Assembly: GCA_041649755.1 (NCBI GenBank)
Contig: JBAZMK010000001.1
Coordinates: forward strand, 66,826 to 130,825
Source: Candidatus Pacearchaeota archaeon
Lineage (GTDB): Archaea > Nanobdellota > Nanobdellia > Pacearchaeales > GW2011-AR1
Length of the DNA: 64,000 nt
Direction: 5' to 3'
How positions within the stretch are numbered: the stretch's first letter is position 1; every line of letters begins with the position of its first letter. Made by a program: the position numbers and the translations under genes. Under the pieces are notes generated by a model that saw only the letters and a program-made list of their open reading frames with translations, did not search any database and was not told the origin of the DNA. Shown here piece after piece: positions 3,107-58,400 of the stretch.

Positions 3107-4573
3107 ATGGCAGGAAGAAAAGAGCAGATTGTTGGTGAGAGATTGAGAAAAATTGGTGAGTTAAAAATTTCTGGAACTAATCCTTATCCGCAGAGATTTG
3201 AGAAAAAAAATATGATTAGTGAGTGTTTTAAGATTGATAAGAAAGTTAAAACTGCCGGGAGATTAGTTAGTAAGAGAGATATTGGGAAGATTATTTTTTC
3301 AAAGATTCAGGACGAGTCGGGTTCTATTCAAGTTGTTTTGCAGGAAGGCAAGACTAAACAAGAATTTATTGATTTTTTTAAAAGTTATATAGATTTAGGA
3401 GATATTGTTGGGGTTTCAGGAAAAGTGATTAAGACAAAGACGGGGGAGATTTCAATTCTTTGCGAGAAACTTGAACTTTTGAGTAAGTCAGTTTTACCTT
3501 TGCCTGAAAAGTGGCACGGACTTCAGGAAAAAGAAGACAGATATAGGAAAAGGTATCTGGATATGATTGTTAATCCAGAAGTTTTGGAGGTTTTTAAGAA
3601 GAAAAGTGTGATTATTGATACAATTAGAGGTTATCTGAAAAAAAATAATTTTACAGAGGTTGAGACGCCGAATTTGCAGGCAATTTACGGGGGGGCGAGT
3701 GCAGAACCTTTTAGAACTCATTTGAATGCTCTTGATATGGATTTATTCCTTTCAATTTCTCCAGAACTTTATCTGAAAAGACTTATTGTCGGGGGGTTTG
3801 ATAGGGTTTTTACAATTTCAAAGAACTTTAGGAATGAAGGAATTGATGCTACTCACAATCCTGAGTTTACAATGATGGAATTTTATTGTGCTTATTCAAA
3901 TTATGAAAAACTTATGGTTATGACAGAAGAGATGCTGAAACTTATTTTTAAGAATTTGAAAATAAAGGAAGAAATTAAATCAGGAGAGAAGTTAATTAAA
4001 TTTAAGTTTCCGATAAAAAGGGTCAGGTTTTGGGATTTAATTCTTGAAAAGACGGGAATTGACCTTGAGAAAATGAGCGATTTTGATTCGCTTAAAGAAG
4101 AGATTGAAAGAAAGGGGATAAAGGGGGTTGATATTTCAGGGTGCAAACATTACGGAGCTTTGCTTGATGAACTTTATAAAAGGGTTGTAAGACCGAGCAT
4201 CGTTGAGCCTATTTTCCTTACTCATTACCCTGTTGAGATGATTGCTCTTGCGAAAAGAAATGAAGAAAATCCCAGACTCATTAATACTTTTCAATTAATT
4301 GTTGACGGGGCGGAGCTTGTTAAGGCTTATGACGAGTTGAATGACCCTTTTGACCAAGAGAAGCGTTTAAAGGAGCAGGCCGATTTGCTTTGCGAAGGCG
4401 ACAGGGAAGCAATGCCTATGGACATTGATTTTATTGAAGCTTTGAAAACGGGAATGCCTCCGACAGCAGGTTATGGTATGGGGATTGACAGAATTGCAAT
4501 TTTGCTGACCGAACAAGAGTCTATAAGAGATGTTATTCCTTTCCCTTTTATGAAGCCTGAGGTTGAAGATTGA
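3107..4573 (+). CDS. lysS: Lysyl-tRNA synthetase, class II
   Basis: N-terminal OB anticodon-binding region; class II motif 2 FRNEGIDATHNPEFTMMEFY; motif 3 GMGIDRIAILLT; likely start at ATG 3107 (MAGRKEQ). Confidence 0.9.
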   Translation: MAGRKEQIVGERLRKIGELKISGTNPYPQRFEKKNMISECFKIDKKVKTAGRLVSKRDIGKIIFSKIQDESGSIQVVLQEGKTKQEFIDFFKSYIDLGDIVGVSGKVIKTKTGEISILCEKLELLSKSVLPLPEKWHGLQEKEDRYRKRYLDMIVNPEVLEVFKKKSVIIDTIRGYLKKNNFTEVETPNLQAIYGGASAEPFRTHLNALDMDLFLSISPELYLKRLIVGGFDRVFTISKNFRNEGIDATHNPEFTMMEFYCAYSNYEKLMVMTEEMLKLIFKNLKIKEEIKSGEKLIKFKFPIKRVRFWDLILEKTGIDLEKMSDFDSLKEEIERKGIKGVDISGCKHYGALLDELYKRVVRPSIVEPIFLTHYPVEMIALAKRNEENPRLINTFQLIVDGAELVKAYDELNDPFDQEKRLKEQADLLCEGDREAMPMDIDFIEALKTGMPPTAGYGMGIDRIAILLTEQESIRDVIPFPFMKPEVED

Positions 4574-4576
4574 AAT

Positions 4577-4738
4577 ATGGCGTTGGTGATAAAAAGTAAT
4601 ATTAGAAAGTATGTTGAGGCGAGTGTGTCTGACGAGTTTGAGAGGGAATTTGAGAGGAAAACGGAAGAGATGCTGAAAAAAGCTGAAGAACGGGCGAAGG
4701 CTAACGGGCGAAGGACTCTTTTTGCACGAGATTTATAA
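4577..4738 (+). CDS. Small (53 aa) histone-fold-like / DUF1931-like DNA-binding protein; missed by the ORF track (<60 aa)
   Basis: ATG..TAA frame MALVIKSNIRKYVEASVSDEFEREFERKTEEMLKKAEERAKANGRRTLFARDL; pattern VS.D...E.....EEM...A...A...GRRT..A.D resembles the archaeal histone / DUF1931 helix-strand-helix. Confidence 0.35.
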   Translation: MALVIKSNIRKYVEASVSDEFEREFERKTEEMLKKAEERAKANGRRTLFARDL

Positions 4739-4739
4739 T

Positions 4740-5783
4740 TTAGCAGACAACTTTTCCGTTTAAAATTTGTTCTCTTAAATTATTGATTTCTTCTTCTGTT
4801 TTTTTGGCTCTACCCTTGAGTAATTGTTCTAAATCTTTTGATTCTAATTCTAATATTCTCTTTAAATCTTTGAGTTCTCTTACTATCTGTGAAATCTCTT
4901 TGCTTGTAAGATTTAGATGTGATAGGAATCTGTATCCTTTCGGCATTATGTTCTCTTCAACAGGTTTTTCAAATATGAGACGAGAAATTGATTCTAGGTC
5001 TAAAATTCCTTCAAAAGTAAGATTTTCAAGAAGATTTACAGATTTTTTCAAAGATAATATTGAATAATCTCTAAGAAGTTCACTTTTTGTTTTTTCTATT
5101 CCTCTTAGAAGTTCCCTGTATCTCATCTGCATAACATTGCCTTCTTTTCCGAGTTCTGTAAAACTTTTTTTAATTGATTCTGAGATTTTCATTATCATTT
5201 CTGTTCTTTGGAGGACCTTGCAAACATCACCTACGGAAACGAGTTTTGACATTTCAAGGATGTTGAGGGTTCCTAATTGCTCGTCGAAAATTTCCCTTTG
5301 CTTTTCAAGAATCTGAAGGGTTGAACTAATCTCCCTTATTAATTCTTCTGTTGTTTTAAGATAATACTTTGAGTTTTGGAAATAAAGAGTTGTCTTTCTT
5401 TTTCTTTCTGAGATAGCGATGACAAAAGTTTTTGCCTGTTTTGCTATCCTTTCTGCAGCTTTATGGCGTGTTCCAGTTTCGTTAGTGTGTATGGAGTTGT
5501 CGGGAGTCATTAGTACATTTGCATAGAGAATTCTCTTAAAGTCATCTGAAATTATTATCCCCCCGTCCATTTTGCATAGTTCAAAGAGTTTTTGTGCTGT
5601 AAAACGGCAGTTAATCCTGAATCCTCCCTCAAAAAGCCCTTTTTCGTGAAGTTCGGGAGAATCAAAAACAATTATTGCTCCAAGGTCAGACCTTAAAAGG
5701 TCGTCTATCACATTTCTTAGTGTTGTTCCGGGGGAAACTATCTTTATTAAATCTATGAAGTTTTTCTCTTTTTCTGCAACCAT
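4740..5783 (-). CDS. disA: DisA-type diadenylate cyclase (DNA integrity scanning protein family)
   Basis: DAC domain motifs DGAIIV / DGGIIISDD and RHKAAERIAKQ (bacterial consensus GTRHRAA), helical linker and C-terminal helical region; 347 aa. Confidence 0.8.
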   Translation of the reverse strand: MVAEKEKNFIDLIKIVSPGTTLRNVIDDLLRSDLGAIIVFDSPELHEKGLFEGGFRINCRFTAQKLFELCKMDGGIIISDDFKRILYANVLMTPDNSIHTNETGTRHKAAERIAKQAKTFVIAISERKRKTTLYFQNSKYYLKTTEELIREISSTLQILEKQREIFDEQLGTLNILEMSKLVSVGDVCKVLQRTEMIMKISESIKKSFTELGKEGNVMQMRYRELLRGIEKTKSELLRDYSILSLKKSVNLLENLTFEGILDLESISRLIFEKPVEENIMPKGYRFLSHLNLTSKEISQIVRELKDLKRILELESKDLEQLLKGRAKKTEEEINNLREQILNGKVVC

Positions 5784-5805
5784 GGGGAAAACAAGAACAT
5801 CTACT

Positions 5806-5813
5806 ATTTATAA
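5806..5813 (-). promoter_or_regulatory. TATA box (ttataaat on - strand) about 25 nt upstream of the disA start
   Basis: Reverse complement of 5806-5813 gives GTTATAAATAG; distance to ATG 5783 is about 25 nt. Confidence 0.3.
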
Positions 5814-5909
5814 CTTTATGTATCTCTTCGTATTTACTGGAAAATAAGAAAATGAAATTAAGAAATATAGTATAATAATCTTTAAATAAGTTTTATTTTT
5901 AATTTTTAT

Positions 5910-6272
5910 ATGGGTTTATTCAGTCTATTAGAAAATACTTCCAGCCCTTTTGAAAGACGGAGGATTATTGAAAAGTTTTTAGAAACACAAGATTTATCAA
6001 AAATAATTCCTGCCAAATCAGGACTTTCTAAAGAGGATAGTGTTCCTTCAGAAGATCCTCCTTATCGAGGGGATGTAATAACGGTTCTTCCCTTTGCAAA
6101 AGGTGGCAGATATCGAATAAAAGAACCTATAGTAGAAGATGGTATAGTCTATGTTTTGGGTATTGTTCAGCCCCGTAGTCGGTTACTGGTAGTTGACGAA
6201 AAAGATGACCTTTATGTCTTACATAGGGAGGAGATTTATTTCCCTATCCCCTCTAATCACATTTTTATATAA
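5910..6272 (+). CDS. Hypothetical protein (120 aa)
   Basis: ORF with ATG; no recognisable motifs. Confidence 0.4.
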   Translation: MGLFSLLENTSSPFERRRIIEKFLETQDLSKIIPAKSGLSKEDSVPSEDPPYRGDVITVLPFAKGGRYRIKEPIVEDGIVYVLGIVQPRSRLLVVDEKDDLYVLHREEIYFPIPSNHIFI

Positions 6273-25042: not shown

Positions 25043-25159
25043 GGTGAGCCCGTAGCTCAGCCAGGTAGAGCACTGCTCTTATATGACTGCGATTCAATGA
25101 ATTGTAGATTTTCTTCAGTCGAAGGAAGGCAGGGGTCCTGGGTTCAAATCCCAGCGGGC
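25043..25159 (+). tRNA. tRNA with a 43-nt intron at the canonical 37/38 position; anticodon reads TAT, so tRNA-Ile(UAU)
   Basis: Hand-folded cloverleaf: acceptor GAGCCCG/CGGGCTC, D stem GCTC/GAGC with GG in the loop, anticodon stem CTGCT/GGCAG, T stem CTGGG/CCCAG with TTCAAAT loop, discriminator A, no encoded CCA; exon 1 25043-25080, intron 25081-25123, exon 2 25124-25159. Confidence 0.75.
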
Positions 25160-25162
25160 TCA

Positions 25163-52873: not shown

Positions 52874-53128
52874 ATGGAAGTTAAAATAATTAAAGATGAA
52901 AAGAATGAACTTGATATAGAGTTGGATAACCTTACAGTTGCAGAGCTTTTGAGAGTTTATCTAAATAAAAATGATGTTAAGATGGTTGCTTGGAAAAGAG
53001 ACCATCCTACAAAAAACCCTGTTTTACATATAGAAGCAGACAATCCGAAAAAGGCTTTAAAGAATTCAATAGCCCAGATAGAAAAAGAGATAGAATCTGC
53101 ATTAAAGGAATTTAAAAAATTAAAGTGA
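52874..53128 (+). CDS. rpoL: DNA-directed RNA polymerase subunit L (Rpo11)
   Basis: Size and pattern NELDIELDNLTVAELLR...HP...P.LHIEAD of Rpo11/RpoL. Confidence 0.65.
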   Translation: MEVKIIKDEKNELDIELDNLTVAELLRVYLNKNDVKMVAWKRDHPTKNPVLHIEADNPKKALKNSIAQIEKEIESALKEFKKLK

Positions 53129-54133
53129 ATTTTTTCTTTTGTTCTTTTTTGCTTCTTTTTTGCTTCTCACTAAAAAGTATATTATTATTATGTCAAGAAC
53201 TATTAAAGAAGTCAGGGTTACTATTGCTCCTCTGAATTTTTTCTCGCTTCCTTCAAGAACAAAGAAAGAGTATGAACCCGTCGCTATGTTTTCTCCATAA
53301 GAGGCTTTTAGATAGAGAACATATTGACCTGGAGGGAGGTCTCTGGGGATGCTTAAACCCCTTACTAATTCAAGTTTATCTTCTATTGCGATGCTTTCCT
53401 CTTTAAATGTCAAAATGTTACCATCAAAATCTTTTATAGCATAATAAAAGAAAACATCTATGCCTTTTAAGTGCCCCATATTTGTAAGGTTAAAACTCAC
53501 TTCAACTTTTTGACCAGAATAAACATAATCCTCTGTCAACTCCCCACTGACATCAAATAAGGGGGACCTTTCTTTAATATTAATTAAAACATTTATATAT
53601 TTAGTTAGGTTCCCTGATTTTACATTTATTTTTCCAGTATAAACTTCGGGTATTTCTTTATCTTCTGCAAAAACCGTAACGCCTATGTTTTTGATTTCCT
53701 GAGGGCTTAGACTAAATTTTTCTTCACTTAAAAACAAAAATTTTTCAAGGTTATGTGAAAGAGTTATGCTTTGCGAGTTATTTCCGGTGTTTTTCACTTT
53801 AATAGACCCGTTTGCTGTTTCTCCCTGCTTAATAGAATAATATAGGAAGTTCTTGTCTAATTCAAAATTGGAGATGCTCAATGGGGGTCCTACGCTAATC
53901 CCTCCGCTAGGACCTCCCCCTTCAGGAATATCGGGTGCTGGGGGGGCAGGACATTCACCACAATCTTCTTGACAAGAAGTACAATTCTCGTTCCACTCAC
54001 AAACACCATTCCCACAAACTCCGGGAATTGAGACTCTTGAAGGGGTCTGAACAGCATATCCGACATATCTTATTGTAAATACGGAAAGAAGACCTAATAA
54101 TAAAAAAACAACCAACCAAGATTTATTTTCCAT
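53120..54133 (-). CDS. Secreted surface protein: Cys-rich N-terminal module, Pro-rich linker, CARDB-like beta-sandwich, C-terminal TM plus Lys-rich tail
   Basis: Signal MENKSWLVVFLLLGLLSVF; CGNGVCEWNENCTSCQEDCGECPAPPAP; TM IVTLTSLIVLDIIIIYFLV + KKEAKKNKRKNSL. Confidence 0.55.
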   Translation of the reverse strand: MENKSWLVVFLLLGLLSVFTIRYVGYAVQTPSRVSIPGVCGNGVCEWNENCTSCQEDCGECPAPPAPDIPEGGGPSGGISVGPPLSISNFELDKNFLYYSIKQGETANGSIKVKNTGNNSQSITLSHNLEKFLFLSEEKFSLSPQEIKNIGVTVFAEDKEIPEVYTGKINVKSGNLTKYINVLINIKERSPLFDVSGELTEDYVYSGQKVEVSFNLTNMGHLKGIDVFFYYAIKDFDGNILTFKEESIAIEDKLELVRGLSIPRDLPPGQYVLYLKASYGENIATGSYSFFVLEGSEKKFRGAIVTLTSLIVLDIIIIYFLVRSKKEAKKNKRKNSL

Positions 54134-54153
54134 AGAAAATTGTAAGTAAAATA

Positions 54154-54816
54154 CTATTTATTTCTTTTCAATTTTTTCTTTCTGACAATTTTCCTTTTAA
54201 TCTTTCTTTTTGGCATTGATTGCGTGATAGAAGTCGGGGATTTATTATAATTTTTACGAACAAGGAATATTATTATAATAAGAGAGACTACAGCAATCAG
54301 GATATAAAGGGCGGTAAGGTCTCTTCCAGATGAATTACAAATTACTTTGATTCTTAAGGGGGCAGAAACTACCATCTGAGTGGCTGAACCTCCAGAATTA
54401 TCTATTTCAGAGGGATTTGCTACTGATTTAACCATTACTTCGCCAGAGAAGATTTTTTGTTCCTCAGAACATTCTTGTTTACATAATGTCCCTAAAAAAC
54501 AATCTTTTTCGTATACCTGGGGAACTTCAAAGCAAAATTCTATAGGTATCGCACTACCACTCGGGGTATTTGCAGGGATTAATTTTGTTTCAGTTTCCTG
54601 AAAAATCAAGACCTCTTTCAATTCTTCTGATAACTCAATCACTACATAGCTTTCTGTGGGCCAGGGATTATAAACTCCATAGCTTACACAGGCTTTACCA
54701 CCCTCCTCTAAGACAATTGACTCTTTTTCCCACTTAATTCCAACACCTGCTAACGAAAGTGGAACTAAAGATAAAATCCCTAAAATTAACCCTGCTAATA
54801 TCACCTCTTTTTTCAT
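54154..54816 (-). CDS. Secreted surface protein with C-terminal TM plus Lys-rich tail
   Basis: Signal MKKEVILAGLILGILSLVPLSLA; TM ALYILIAVVSLIIIIFLV + RKKKLKRNK. Confidence 0.5.
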   Translation of the reverse strand: MKKEVILAGLILGILSLVPLSLAGVGIKWEKESIVLEEGGKACVSYGVYNPWPTESYVVIELSEELKEVLIFQETETKLIPANTPSGSAIPIEFCFEVPQVYEKDCFLGTLCKQECSEEQKIFSGEVMVKSVANPSEIDNSGGSATQMVVSAPLRIKVICNSSGRDLTALYILIAVVSLIIIIFLVRKNYNKSPTSITQSMPKRKIKRKIVRKKKLKRNK

Positions 54817-54817
54817 T

Positions 54818-55402
54818 TTATTCGCAATTTCCTCCTGTAATTACTCCCTTAAAATAGACTGTATTATTATATGTTCCTACTGGTTGTGCTGCAGGGATAT
54901 CCAACCAAAATCGGTAATAGAAATTACTTCCTTTCTCTATATCCACTCCTGACTTAACATAACTCTTTGTAAGTGAAACTTCACTCGCTACGGCAGGCGT
55001 ACCTGCATCTGTTGTTGTGGAATTTGCGTATGTTTGATTACCCACTCCAATAATCTCCAGTTCCTGACTCATCAGGTCTTCATTTGCTTTAATGCACAAA
55101 TCCACATTAGAATTACTATCGTTTGAAACTTCAATATACATTGTACTTCCACTGCTCCCCCCATCATGATTATGGGTTGCGTTCACATTTGTTCCAGGTA
55201 ATTCATTTATTGTTCCAAATAAGATTCCTTCGCCTAAGTTGCTTGACATCTGGATTGCCAAATAAGAAGTGATTGTAACATTTGAAACTGCAGAGCCCTC
55301 TGTAACGTATCCTGTCATTCCGATACTTTGCAAGAGAATCATTGAAATGGATAAAACTAATAGAATTCCGAAGAAAACAATAAAGAAATTATCTCTTTTC
55401 AT
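54818..55402 (-). CDS. Secreted protein whose C-terminal ~100 aa is homologous to the C-terminus of the giant protein 55439-61207
   Basis: VDLCIKANEDLMSQELEIIGVGNQT...YYRFWLDIPAAQPVGTYNNTVYFKGV aligns with VDVYLKANSDLMTADLDTLGIGNET...IYLKFFLSAPPAQPAGVYNNSLLFKAV. Confidence 0.5.
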   Translation of the reverse strand: MKRDNFFIVFFGILLVLSISMILLQSIGMTGYVTEGSAVSNVTITSYLAIQMSSNLGEGILFGTINELPGTNVNATHNHDGGSSGSTMYIEVSNDSNSNVDLCIKANEDLMSQELEIIGVGNQTYANSTTTDAGTPAVASEVSLTKSYVKSGVDIEKGSNFYYRFWLDIPAAQPVGTYNNTVYFKGVITGGNCE

Positions 55403-55438: not shown

Positions 55439-58400
55439 TCAAGGAGTCTGGCCGTGAGGAACTGCTTTGAATAAAAGAGAGTTGTTGTAAACTCCTGCCG
55501 GCTGAGCGGGGGGTGCACTCAAGAAAAATTTCAAATAGATGACGCTTCCATCGCCAAGATTGTCTCCTATCTTATTATCATAATCTGTTGTAAGACTATA
55601 TTTAGTTTCACTTGGAACGCTCTGATTATCATAACTATACGAAAAAGTTTCGTTTCCGATTCCAAGAGTATCTAAATCAGCGGTCATTAAATCTGAGTTT
55701 GCTTTTAAGTAAACATCTACGCCAGAACTTAAAGTAGAGATATTTATGTAATAATCTGTTGAGCCTTCGCCATTATTCCCTTCTGCCGACTGATTGAATA
55801 TGGGTAAGGAAGAGATTGTCCAATTTATCTTATCATTTAGCTTATCAGAGAAATAAATCGCTATTCCTTCTTCTGCAGATTGTATTGTTAAATTCCATTC
55901 TCCCGTCGCATTAGAGATATCTAGATTAGAAGTTAAATTAGCAAACGCATAAAAACTATGTGTATTACTCGCCTCTCCTGTTGCGTTTACCCAGAAAGTT
56001 ATCGTCTCACTCTGTCCTTCGGTCAATGAAGAAGTTGTCAAAGGATTTGAACTTGCATTTGTGTAGAAAGGCGTTCCAGAATTAATAGGAATTAAACCTG
56101 AGGAGTATAAGCTTGTGTTGATTGTTTCACAATTCCCTTCAAGACAGGTCACATTTAAGGTTACATTAAAAAATTCGTTTTGTGTTATATTAATATTCTC
56201 TGTCGGATATAAAACCTCTAACCCTATTAAAGGAGTTGAATTAACAAAGAAAACAACGGATTCCGTATCGTTTAAATTTCCTGCAGTATCATTACAATAA
56301 GCATAAATTGTGTAAGTATTGTTTGATGATATAGAATAAGTTGAATTGAACACTAAATTATCTGTGGTGTCCATTGAAAAGTTTGAGGTTCCGTTTCCGA
56401 ACCAGCAAGTTCCTTCTTCGTTGATTGTAAAATTCACCACGATAGAAGTTGTTGAATAAGAGTATGTTTGATTTAGTGGAGAGTTTATTGTTACAGAAGG
56501 TGGAGTTGCATCCATTCCACTAATTGTTACCGTTCTCATTTCAGTTTCATTCACATTCCCAGCCATATCTTGTGTGTATGCTTTGAATGTGTGTGTTCCT
56601 TCTGCTAAACTTGTGAAGTTATGGTAGGAGTTTCCGCTCCAGACAGTTAAGTTTCCTCTTTTTACTAGTATAATATGGTTTGGAACAGTTACATCGTAGA
56701 TTCTTCCATTGTAATTCTCTTTTGTTATGTTTTTTATTTTTATTTCTCTGCCTTTTTCATCTAAAAATACCAAATTATCTGTATTTTTATTGCCTTTTTC
56801 AATTTCAGAGTATAATTCAGAGATTTTTATTAGGTTGAAATTGTTTAGTTCTTCCCTACCAAAAGGTTTAAATACTTTATTTGTATGCAAATAAGATAAA
56901 TAATTACTTTGTAAATCCAAGATGGGAACAATCACTCTATCTGTGCCTGATGAATTGAAGTCTGAAATGGATAGTACTGATTTTATTAATTGGTCTTCAG
57001 TAGCAAGAAGGGCATTTTTGGAGGTACTCAAGGATGTTAAAAAATTAGAATTATTAAAGAAACTTAGAGAAATTTCTGAAATATCTGATGATGACAGAAG
57101 AGAGATTAAAGATTCTCTTGTCAAAGAAGTAGTGGATTCTGTTGAAAAGGTTTCTAAAGACTTAAAGTCCGGCAAGATCAAGCCGAAAAGCTTAAAAGAA
57201 TTCAATGCATTCTGTGAGTCATGAATATTGATACTACCCTTATTGATGATACTCTCATCAAGCTTAGAAAAAAAGATTTGACTCTTTTTAGGGCTCTTCA
57301 AAAGAAAATCTGCCAAATTGCCCAACTCGATTGGGATTCCCTTCAGCATTTCAAAAATTTGAGGGGGAGCCTTAAAGACTATAAGCGAGTCCATGTTGGA
57401 AGTTACGTCCTTATTTTCAAGGTAGAAAGAGAGGTTATTATCTTCGCCAAATTTGTCCATCATGACGAGGCTTACTGAGCCGCGCTTTTCTTTTTTATTA
57501 GAATAAGCAACATAAACTTTATGCTCAGGTGAAACGAGCAGGCTTCCTTTTTCTTCATCATAATTTTCAGTTTCAATTCTGTACATTTCTTCATTTTCAT
57601 GTGCAAAATCCTGTTTTTCAGTTGGTTTTTGCCATTCAGTTTCTCCTGAATTTGAATTAAGAGTGAGGATTTCATCCTCTAAACTTACATTTGAAAAATG
57701 TTTCCAGCCAGAATCAGTCATAACTTCTGTTTCATTATCAAAACAGTATTTTGTACTCTGGTTTGCGTATAATGCCTGAATTTCTTCAGCAGATAAACTT
57801 CTATTAAATATCATTACATCGTCGATGGAACCGTTGAAACTTTGACTATTATCTGATTTAGAACCTATATTAGCAGTATTCAAGTTTATTGGACGTCCAC
57901 TAAAAGCATAATAGCTACCTCCATATTGCCCATTTAAATACAGAAATATGCCACTTTCATTATTGATTACTACAAGATTATTCCAAGTATCTTCTGTAAT
58001 AACTGGACCATTAATATTAATATTAGGTCCATCAGAATCCCATCTAACCCGCACAATATCATCGTCTGACCACCTAATAAAAGCACTAGGATAGCCAGTT
58101 CCTGCAAGATTAAATAAGTAATTATCAGTTCCATCATTTATTGCTTTAAACCAAAGCGAAATGGTAGAATAAGTATATGAAACACTAGGTCCAGCAACAT
58201 CAACATAATCCCCATCTCCATCAAACTCAAACCCCTTCCCTAGTTTTCCAGCAGTTGTTTGTTTTGCATCCCCTTGTTTTGTTCCATTGTTGCTTCCAGT
58301 ATAATCTACCACTGTTGTTCCATTAAAGTCATCCATCCTCCACCATCCTACTAATGAATTATCAAAGTCAATGAATGTGCTTATGTTGCTATTTCCTCTT

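Follow-up and report, generated by a model that had tools for sequence, protein, structure and literature searches.

A predicted toxin–antitoxin operon lies antisense in the homing-endonuclease slot of an archaeal intein

The DNA analyzed here (the window) is a 64-kb segment of an archaeal chromosome, from Candidatus Pacearchaeota archaeon (GCA_041649755.1, contig JBAZMK010000001.1), with 34.5% G+C and genes for aEF-2, ThrRS, class II LysRS, SMC, Rad50 and Elp3. One giant gene on its - strand encodes a protein of 1922 residues with a signal-like N-terminal segment, GLUG repeats (28 bits in Pfam), a Laminin_G_3 domain (71 bits) and Big_13/OmpL47-like Ig domains; an identical protein is present in a representative protein library (P0011). 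Judged by its sequence, this gene product is a secreted or surface protein that is interrupted by an intein. Two genes on the + strand, a predicted antitoxin and a predicted toxin, lie wholly inside the intein, between block B and block F. A previous reading of the window from its letters and open reading frames (ORFs), hereafter the sequence-only reading, had proposed a toxin–antitoxin (TA) cassette at this place, and its coordinates for the 100-aa and 85-aa ORFs and for their 4-nt ATGA overlap are exactly those found here (Table 1).

Table 1. Features of the host gene, the intein and its cargo, in window coordinates
Feature	Position	Strand	Basis or remarks
Host gene, single ORF, 1922 aa	55439..61207	-	ORF list
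Intein, 372 aa (host aa 1155-1526)	57745..56630	-	Cys1 codon 57745-57743; terminal Asn codon 56632-56630; +1 Ser codon of the C-extein 56629-56627
N-terminal splicing domain, blocks A-B, ending LLVSPEHKVYVAYS	57500..57745	-	phmmer and N/C pairing; pLDDT 79-93
C-terminal splicing domain, blocks F-G, NNFNLIKISELY ... IYDVTVPNHIILVKRGNLTVWSGN	56630..56845	-	phmmer and N/C pairing; pLDDT 73-90
Cargo segment in the homing-endonuclease slot	56846..57499	both	intein residues ~83-300; + strand: promoter, antitoxin, toxin, T-run
Putative archaeal promoter	56860..56874	+	BRE-like caaaagg 56860-56866; TATA box TTTAAATA 56867-56874
Antitoxin gene, 100 aa, RHH-type N-terminus (TITLSVPDELK...NWSSVARRAF)	56922..57224	+	NF050799; homologues with PF26688
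Toxin gene, 85 aa, RelE/ParE superfamily, YafQ-like	57221..57478	+	ParE_toxin, TIGR00053, AF2/Foldseek
T-run ttttctttttt	57486..57496	+	8 nt past the toxin stop; possible archaeal terminator, weak; Lys/Glu codons in the intein frame

The intein begins with CFDNETEV, carries the block B motif SPEH within LLVSPEHKVYV and ends in WSGN/S (here and below, a slash marks a splice junction), that is, in IYDVTVPNHIILVKRGNLTVWSGN followed by Ser. The splicing core consists of ∼155 residues (82 + 73) and is split by the cargo segment, whose - strand reading is a stop-free linker rich in Ser, Leu, Phe and Asn. In the AlphaFold2 (AF2) model of the intein, residues 1–81 and 302–372 have a predicted local distance difference test score (pLDDT) of 73–93, compared to less than 50, and near 30, for residues 82–301. 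The best Foldseek matches of the confident part in the PDB are inteins, hedgehog Hint domains and bacterial intein-like (BIL and BIL2) domains only, with a probability of 1.00, and the PDB intein 6zgq (AceL NrdHF) matches the window intein at an E-value of 4e-4. As modeled, the cargo read in the intein frame is a disordered, non-domain linker in the block B–F loop of a Hint fold, which is the slot to which the sequence-only reading had assigned the antisense cassette.

Relatives of the intein were collected by a scan of metagenome contigs and GTDB genome contigs, seeded with the C-terminal splicing domain. The scan returned 88 loci (L001, L002 and so on below), mostly from DPANN archaea, in which inteins were defined by pairing N-domain with C-domain matches (79 N–C pairs). 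In the representative protein library, 2694 proteins are related to the window intein at E≤1e-3, of which 378 reach E≤1e-10; many of these library relatives are giant, with as many as eight stretches matched per protein. Across the family, Cys1 (39/39), the terminal Asn (38/38) and the +1 Ser (38/38) are invariant, and block B conforms to S/T-x-x-H. The family sits at several distinct extein sites. The intein of L001 is located at …EDESSGH/C…N/SNNGTCSS…, a site that is uninterrupted in the window protein (…DYTG SNNGTKQG…), and its removal in silico restores a sequence that is colinear with the uninterrupted protein. Such a pattern marks a mobile element that has inserted precisely and in frame. 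An empty copy of the window's own site (…STKY/SYHNFT) was not found among the fetched loci. On the strength of its sequence and model, the element is a genuine Hint-fold intein of class-1 type that is predicted to splice. The L001 intein, which is otherwise intact and TA-loaded, also contains an extra insert of ∼200 nt with a higher G+C content (∼1310–1510), together with a -1 frameshift, between block F (…VLVRR) and block G (…AVWSGN/S); possible explanations are decay, an error in sequencing or another small insertion.

With the antitoxin gene first and a 4-nt overlap between the two, the embedded genes are arranged as in a type II TA operon. The toxin scores 23.2 bits with Pfam ParE_toxin (gathering threshold 23) and matches TIGR00053 (YafQ) at an E-value of 7.6e-13, below the trusted cutoff, and TIGR02385 (RelE_StbE) at 2.8e-5. 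Its AF2 model, built on an alignment of homologues, has a pLDDT of 92.9. The best 50 PDB matches of this model in Foldseek are all RelE/ParE-superfamily toxins or the RelE-fold Cami1, with template modeling (TM) scores of up to 0.79, and the matches include YafQ, HP0894, YoeB, RelE, ParE and HigB. The toxin has 40 homologues with 40–87% identity (37/40 at 58% or above), several of which, from Nanoarchaeota, Woesearchaeota and Diapherotrites, are annotated at source as YafQ or RelE. K45, L47, R56, V57, H58, H80, D82 and Y85 are invariant across the 40 homologues; K45, R56, H58, H80, D82 and Y85 align with the motif region of YafQ and RelE3, a correspondence at the level of the region. Sequence and model identify the 85-aa protein as a RelE/ParE-fold, YafQ-like toxin, probably of the mRNA-interferase type, whose toxicity is predicted.

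The support for the antitoxin is weaker. It matches NF050799, a hidden Markov model (HMM) of a Sulfolobus VapB-type antitoxin, at an E-value of 1e-6, below the cutoff, and a search of the local copy of Pfam gave no match for it; its 101-aa homologues carry a precomputed match to PF26688 (RHH_12). By these similarities, the 100-aa protein is a ribbon-helix-helix (RHH)-type antitoxin, predicted to neutralize the toxin. The HMM searches thus agree with the RelE/ParE and RHH-like identities put forward in the sequence-only reading. Neither the window toxin nor P0002 gave a match when looked up by exact sequence.

Upstream of the operon, a sequence resembling the archaeal transcription factor B recognition element (BRE) is followed by a TATA box (TTTAAATA) located 55 nt before the antitoxin ATG. 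The intein frame reads ...KVFKPF... there, and its FKPF peptide, which is conserved, is this putative promoter read backwards. In the family, the TATA box is found 30–58 nt upstream of the first cargo gene, usually after a purine-rich BRE. A perfect TTTAWATA is present in 21 of 45 distinct upstream regions, compared to 1.2 expected in shuffled sequences, and its density is 6.7 per kb upstream versus 0.19 per kb within the cassettes. The TA operon probably has its own BRE/TATA promoter within the cargo. The sequence-only reading had placed a TATA-like element at 56890–56905; the conserved box lies further upstream instead, and the element at 56890–56905 is a possible additional one. The T-run behind the toxin was considered as a terminator, and was dropped as a general feature since a run of at least five T is present in no more than 5 of 46 members. 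The cargo has no flanking inverted repeats, and a weak 26-nt match is the sole direct repeat in the window region; nothing resembling the border of a transposon, or of a miniature inverted-repeat transposable element (MITE), was found around the cargo.

As the sequence-only reading had pointed out, the intein frame stays open across the cassette: it is free of stops over positions 56922–57478, and the other two - strand frames contain 20 and 17. The toxin gene is codon-aligned with the intein frame, and uses TTA or CTA in none of its 11 Leu codons and TCA in none of its 3 Ser codons; synonymous resampling of this gene alone gives a probability of 0.0009 for an open frame. The wobble position of the antitoxin gene coincides with the wobble position of the intein frame, a phase in which antisense stops need Tyr, His or Gln codons. 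The antitoxin contains no Tyr, His or Gln, and uses TTA five times. The background stop density in this phase is 0.039 per codon, so that ∼3.9 stops would be expected per 100 codons.

The same holds for the family. The intein frame is stop-free in 52 of the 56 distinct cargo middles, and the 44 stops found in 14,909 codons all fall in four frameshifted loci, compared to 1071 and 1665 stops in the other two frames of the same strand. A search of all loci with TA profiles found the opposite frame to be stop-free for 206 of 210 distinct TA ORFs, and the open frame is always the one that is continuous with both splicing domains. When the synonymous codons of the TA genes were resampled with local codon usage and the protein sequences held fixed, 169 intein-frame stops were expected over 50 cassettes, and none is observed. 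In the wobble-aligned genes (RHH, PIN_2 and DUF5615), the base before a Tyr codon is T or C in 0 of 117 cases and the base before a His or Gln codon is T in 0 of 321, while TTA, CTA and TCA are used freely. In the codon-aligned genes (RelE and DUF433), TTA and CTA are absent from 170 Leu codons and TCA from 67 Ser codons, while T before Tyr, His or Gln is common. Stop avoidance is phase-specific and reciprocal, and the window operon shows both rules.

Free-standing RelE homologues provide the comparison. Six distinct ones (nine or ten loci; L025 and L057 are near-identical) have 1–6 stops in the best or corresponding antisense frame. L025 and L057 have 4–6 stops in the best opposite frame, with TTA, CTA or TCA in 8 of 17 Leu and Ser codons, and L082 has one stop, with 1 of 11. 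The close free-standing relatives of the window cassette (L094/95, L096 and L097–100), whose toxins are 59–74% identical to that of the window, have 5, 3 and 2 stops, with TTA, CTA or TCA in 5/11, 3/11 and 1/11 of their Leu and Ser codons, the last of these being little usage. Thus, the open frame is a property of the embedded copies only. We conclude that the intein frame is kept open by selection and that chance is excluded, in keeping with the sequence-only reading, which had considered so long an open antisense frame unlikely by chance. In L097–L100 (cassette at 3699–4258 of L097), where the toxin is ∼74% identical, the low stop count may be a fading trace of a former embedding in an intein, or may reflect a pre-adapted source cassette.

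The cargo genes are themselves under purifying selection. In all five cargo families, substitutions per site at the three codon positions of the TA frame are ordered p2<p1<p3 (p1/p2/p3 of.39/.25/.51 for the antitoxin and.35/.27/.56 for the toxin), the reverse of the pattern expected if selection acted on the amino acids of the intein frame, and the catalytic motifs of the cargo proteins are conserved. The codon-level comparison of related loci, of the kind that the sequence-only reading had suggested, places the amino-acid constraint in the TA frame.

Antisense ORFs are present in the 138–630-aa middles of 56 distinct N–C pairs, ∼50 of which are recognizable TA-type cassettes. The cargo types are RHH+RelE, RHH+PIN_2, DUF433+DUF5615, a VapC-like PIN protein with a small partner, DUF2283, and a clan-AA aspartic protease. 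By clustering, RHH/VapB-like proteins are represented by 46 distinct sequences, a cluster to which the window antitoxin belongs, PIN_2 by 31, RelE/ParE by 12, DUF433 by 10 and DUF5615 by 9. Cargo proteins of the relatives score above the Pfam gathering thresholds for ParE_toxin (28.1 bits), PIN_2 (64.3, with a span of 57–64 bits), DUF433 (62.8), DUF5615 (44.9), PIN (34.7), DUF2283 (36.9) and Asp_protease_2 (40.6). Single inteins can contain double TA cassettes (L067, L071 at 4465–6234, L072 and L078), with four to six antisense ORFs in middles of 460–630 aa that are still without an intein-frame stop; L078 reaches ∼630 codons, with four embedded genes. At the other extreme are mini-inteins without an insert (L074, L083 and others), in which the 82-aa N domain adjoins the 73-aa C domain, and distant relatives (L048, L054, L058, L059 and L090) with a sense-strand LAGLIDADG_3 domain in the same position. 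The mini-inteins and the LAGLIDADG_3 relatives together indicate that the cargo slot is the classical endonuclease slot.

L002 (144–1007) is a truncated intein remnant whose sequence starts with block B, immediately behind another gene. Instead of a classical TA pair, it contains the clan-AA (retropepsin-like) aspartic protease as antisense cargo, and its frame has stayed open. In L015, L051, L063, L077, L078 and L081, a gap of 217–313 nt separates the cassette from the C domain, and a conserved frame, …(F/L)xxL…RGE(I/L) followed by a stop, ends upstream of the called antitoxin start. The sequence of this frame suggests an extra short RHH-like ORF or a split antitoxin.

Comparison of close relatives indicates that the cargo is exchanged as a module. 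The closest relative of the window intein in the splicing domains is L004, which carries DUF433+DUF5615 instead of RelE. The splicing domains of the two are 79% identical; at the DNA level, identity is ∼80% up to the HKVYV codons, random across the cargo, and resumes at NFNLIKIS. Other close pairs with different cargo are the two inteins within one protein of L027 (80% identical), L032/L033 and L062/L063. From these sequence comparisons, cargo is exchanged between related inteins as a unit. L092 (560–5388; ENA ERZ4903185 k141_1971933) contains three tandem inteins of a different, canonical family, with TAEHPYL as block B and VAHN/T at the C-terminus, the first of which scores 68.7 bits with Pfam Intein_splicing. 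All three have antisense cargo (DUF5615, RelE+RHH and PIN_2+RHH, in this order), and thus the arrangement is not confined to one intein lineage. A different kind of array is found in L093 (5229–8996; GCA_016783795.1, JADHVW010000019.1), where four direct repeats of ∼110 nt separate the cassettes RelE+RHH, AbiEi/AbiEii, RelE+RHH and a further gene. The RelE+RHH cassettes there have stop-free antisense frames of 328 and 291 aa outside any intact intein, and one cassette begins with an intein-like fragment, GWIKVKELKEGDEIAVPR. L093 may be an integron-like array fed by intein-derived cassettes.

We propose that the window contains a composite selfish element, an intein with a complete antisense type II TA operon from which both parties benefit, addiction included. 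The structural part of this proposal is highly probable, and the proposal as a whole is, in our judgment, likely. The precursor would be translated through the cassette, and the resulting linker would then be removed by protein splicing to leave an intact surface protein. Transcription of the TA operon would be convergent to that of the host gene and would start from a BRE/TATA promoter of its own within the cargo. Antisense would be the only orientation open to a two-gene operon with its own stops inside a continuous ORF, because a sense operon would terminate the host ORF, whereas the stops of an antisense operon read as Leu or Ser on the other strand. For the TA cassettes, an intein would offer a phenotypically silent landing site in a gene-dense genome, and the conserved intein flanks would allow cassettes to be exchanged between intein copies. 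For the intein, the TA module could act as an addiction system: replacement by an intein-free copy, or precise deletion, would remove the antitoxin gene and be penalized, which would let inteins without an endonuclease persist. The broader proposition, that such 'TA-inteins' are widespread in DPANN and other archaea, with antisense TA or defense cassettes replacing the endonuclease, addiction replacing homing and the modules being exchanged, is one for which we see the chances as evenly balanced.

Several points weigh against this proposal. Transcription of either strand and splicing itself are both inferred from sequence, and the data would fit pure hitch-hiking of TA cassettes equally well. 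The window intein scores below curated cut-offs (21.2 versus 24.5 with TIGR01445, at an E-value of 4.4e-4; 17 versus 35.8 with Pfam Intein_splicing), as it does with Hint_2 (14 versus a threshold of 28.4). In block G, the window intein and 36 of 38 relatives have Gly in place of the penultimate His; active inteins vary at this position, and the Gly is therefore not disqualifying. An HMM search found neither LAGLIDADG nor HNH in the window intein, in line with the sequence-only reading of its middle, and no endonuclease is encoded. A secreted protein is an unusual home for an intein. The four loci with broken frames and the truncated remnant in L002 indicate that some copies decay. Finally, the loci were found by a search for the intein, and TA-free relatives with divergent C-domains may be under-sampled.

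The main alternative concerns function, which, be it addiction or safe harbor, we infer. TA, abortive-infection or defense cassettes may simply gather in the endonuclease loop, as one of the few sites of a compact genome at which an insertion is phenotypically silent, acting for themselves or in host defense, with no gain to the intein. The structural evidence as a whole suits this reading just as well. The slot is shared by many unrelated cargo types, some inteins contain double cassettes, and close homologues of the cassettes are also found free-standing between housekeeping genes and, next to AbiEii, in the repeat-separated array of L093. However, such a harbor leaves endonuclease-less inteins at several extein sites unexplained, and the tally of the sample (∼56 distinct loaded inteins, ∼6 mini-inteins and ∼8 with a sense middle) suggests that loaded copies persist preferentially, subject to a possible sampling bias. 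We regard a harbor without benefit to the intein as rather unlikely. Improbable by a wider distance is a Hint domain that does not splice, namely a BIL-like autoprocessing module that cleaves the surface protein and has the TA cassette in its loop. The host is secreted, repetitive and variable, as are the hosts of BIL domains, BIL domains are among the fold matches, and the penultimate His is absent; but the invariant Cys1, terminal Asn and +1 Ser are what full splicing requires, the in silico removal of the L001 intein yields a colinear protein, and the relatives include inteins with LAGLIDADG domains and one (L059) that passes the Pfam Intein_splicing threshold (42 versus 35.8).

The two remaining alternatives deny that the cassette and the intein frame are both real, and we give either of them next to no credence. 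In one, the + strand ORFs would be decaying relics or spurious, and the middle would encode an unrecognized domain in the intein frame. The cargo translated in the intein frame is indeed 49–58% identical between the window and L001/P0002, but this identity follows from conservation of the TA frame, given that the p2<p1<p3 order of the TA frame is inverted in the intein frame. Moreover, 206 of 210 TA ORFs are intact and retain their catalytic motifs, the toxin is modeled with confidence as a RelE fold while the intein-frame middle has a pLDDT near 30, and unrelated cargos are swapped between close relatives of the intein. In the other, the frame would be open by chance or composition, and the large ORF would not be translated across the cassette, being a pseudogene or two genes. 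The wobble-aligned antisense phase does have the lowest stop density of the three, and antisense open stretches of up to 172 codons are found in ordinary genes of the window; these facts are outweighed by the absence of the 169 expected stops, an expectation that is conditional on the protein sequences, by phase-specific codon avoidance with stops in the free-standing homologues, and by the constant continuity of the open frame with both splicing domains. A role of the toxin as a surrogate homing nuclease was also considered and is unlikely, as the cargo toxins belong to diverse RNase-type families (RelE, PIN and DUF5615).

Elsewhere in the window, three small secreted proteins are encoded downstream of the giant gene (53120–55402 and 55439–55520, both on the - strand). 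The protein encoded at 54818–55402 ends in AAQPVGTYNNTVYFKGVITGGNCE, which resembles the C-terminus of the giant protein, PPAQPAGVYNNSLLFKAVPHGQTP, and the end of the gene upstream of the L002 remnant. From this resemblance, a C-terminal module seems to be common to the small secreted proteins and the giant protein. At 25046–25162 (+ strand), a 117-nt tRNA with an intron (Rfam RF00005, 56.7 bits) fits an archaeal origin; ARAGORN reported no tRNA in the window, this one included.

In the standard view, inteins survive through cycles of endonuclease-driven homing, decay and loss. If the composite selfish element is real, it would represent a new way for inteins to persist, with an addiction module maybe doing the job of homing. 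Inteins also emerge here as carriers of TA or defense genes in very small, gene-dense archaeal genomes. The ∼50 independent, selection-maintained antisense overlaps of 200–630 codons form a natural dataset with a clear recoding rule, which bears on the long-standing debate over whether prokaryotes have long antisense overlapping genes, and also on how synthetic gene overlaps are designed. To our knowledge, these include, at up to ∼630 codons (L078), the longest antisense dual-coding stretches maintained by selection in prokaryotes. The arrangement also matters for annotation, as gene callers at present either split the giant ORF in favor of the TA genes or keep it whole and overlook them. As judged from the models, the Hint domain would tolerate hundreds of unselected, disordered insert residues, which is relevant to intein engineering.

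Full-text literature searches for inteins with TA modules, with antisense genes or in DPANN archaea gave no publication that describes an operon, TA or other, within an intein; a Thiomargarita paper among the matches is unrelated. Consistent with these searches, and with the sequence-only reading, which did not recognize the arrangement as described, the components (intein and type II TA module) are known, and the architecture and the persistence strategy that it implies are not. The canonical endonuclease-bearing inteins (PI-SceI, PI-PfuI and VMA) have in common with the window intein the Hint fold and the insertion point of the accessory module, and are likewise in-frame insertions. However, their endonuclease is translated as part of the intein, whereas the cargo here is encoded on the opposite strand, as two genes of an independent operon with a putative promoter; and they persist by homing, whereas persistence here would rest on addiction or hitch-hiking. 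Mini-inteins and BIL domains resemble the present family in the core of ∼155 residues, in the existence of insert-free members and, for BIL domains, in the large repetitive surface proteins that host them. BIL domains lack the strict C-terminal junction, whereas the Asn/Ser junction is invariant here and LAGLIDADG relatives exist, although the type of host matches. Neither mini-inteins nor BIL domains carry embedded genes, unlike the window intein.

The cargo shares with the type II TA modules (RelBE/YafQ-DinJ, VapBC and ParDE) the antitoxin–toxin order, the 4-nt overlap and the RelE/YafQ fold, and the toxin has conserved His/Arg/Tyr motifs. Like TA modules on plasmids, prophages, integrons and genomic islands, it is linked to a mobile element whose loss could be penalized. 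The known modules ride on a replicon or an island, whereas this one lies antisense in a coding frame of an intein that must stay open and that would be removed at the protein level. Nuclear group I introns can encode homing-endonuclease genes on the antisense strand, and are similar in that a self-splicing element has its cargo on the opposite strand. Their cargo is an endonuclease and not a TA module, and, since such introns are spliced out of the RNA, no frame has to stay open across it. The nearest precedent is the in-frame insertion in a DNA methylase of phage ShiLan, which contains an out-of-frame 'hidden' HNH endonuclease and has no internal stops in the host frame (PMC11855218). As here, a gene is hidden in another frame of a mobile insertion that is read through. 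In ShiLan, the hidden endonuclease gene shares the strand of the host gene and a splicing domain was not found (PMC11855218), whereas in the intein family described here the hidden genes are antisense TA operons, flanked by the two halves of a complete Hint domain.

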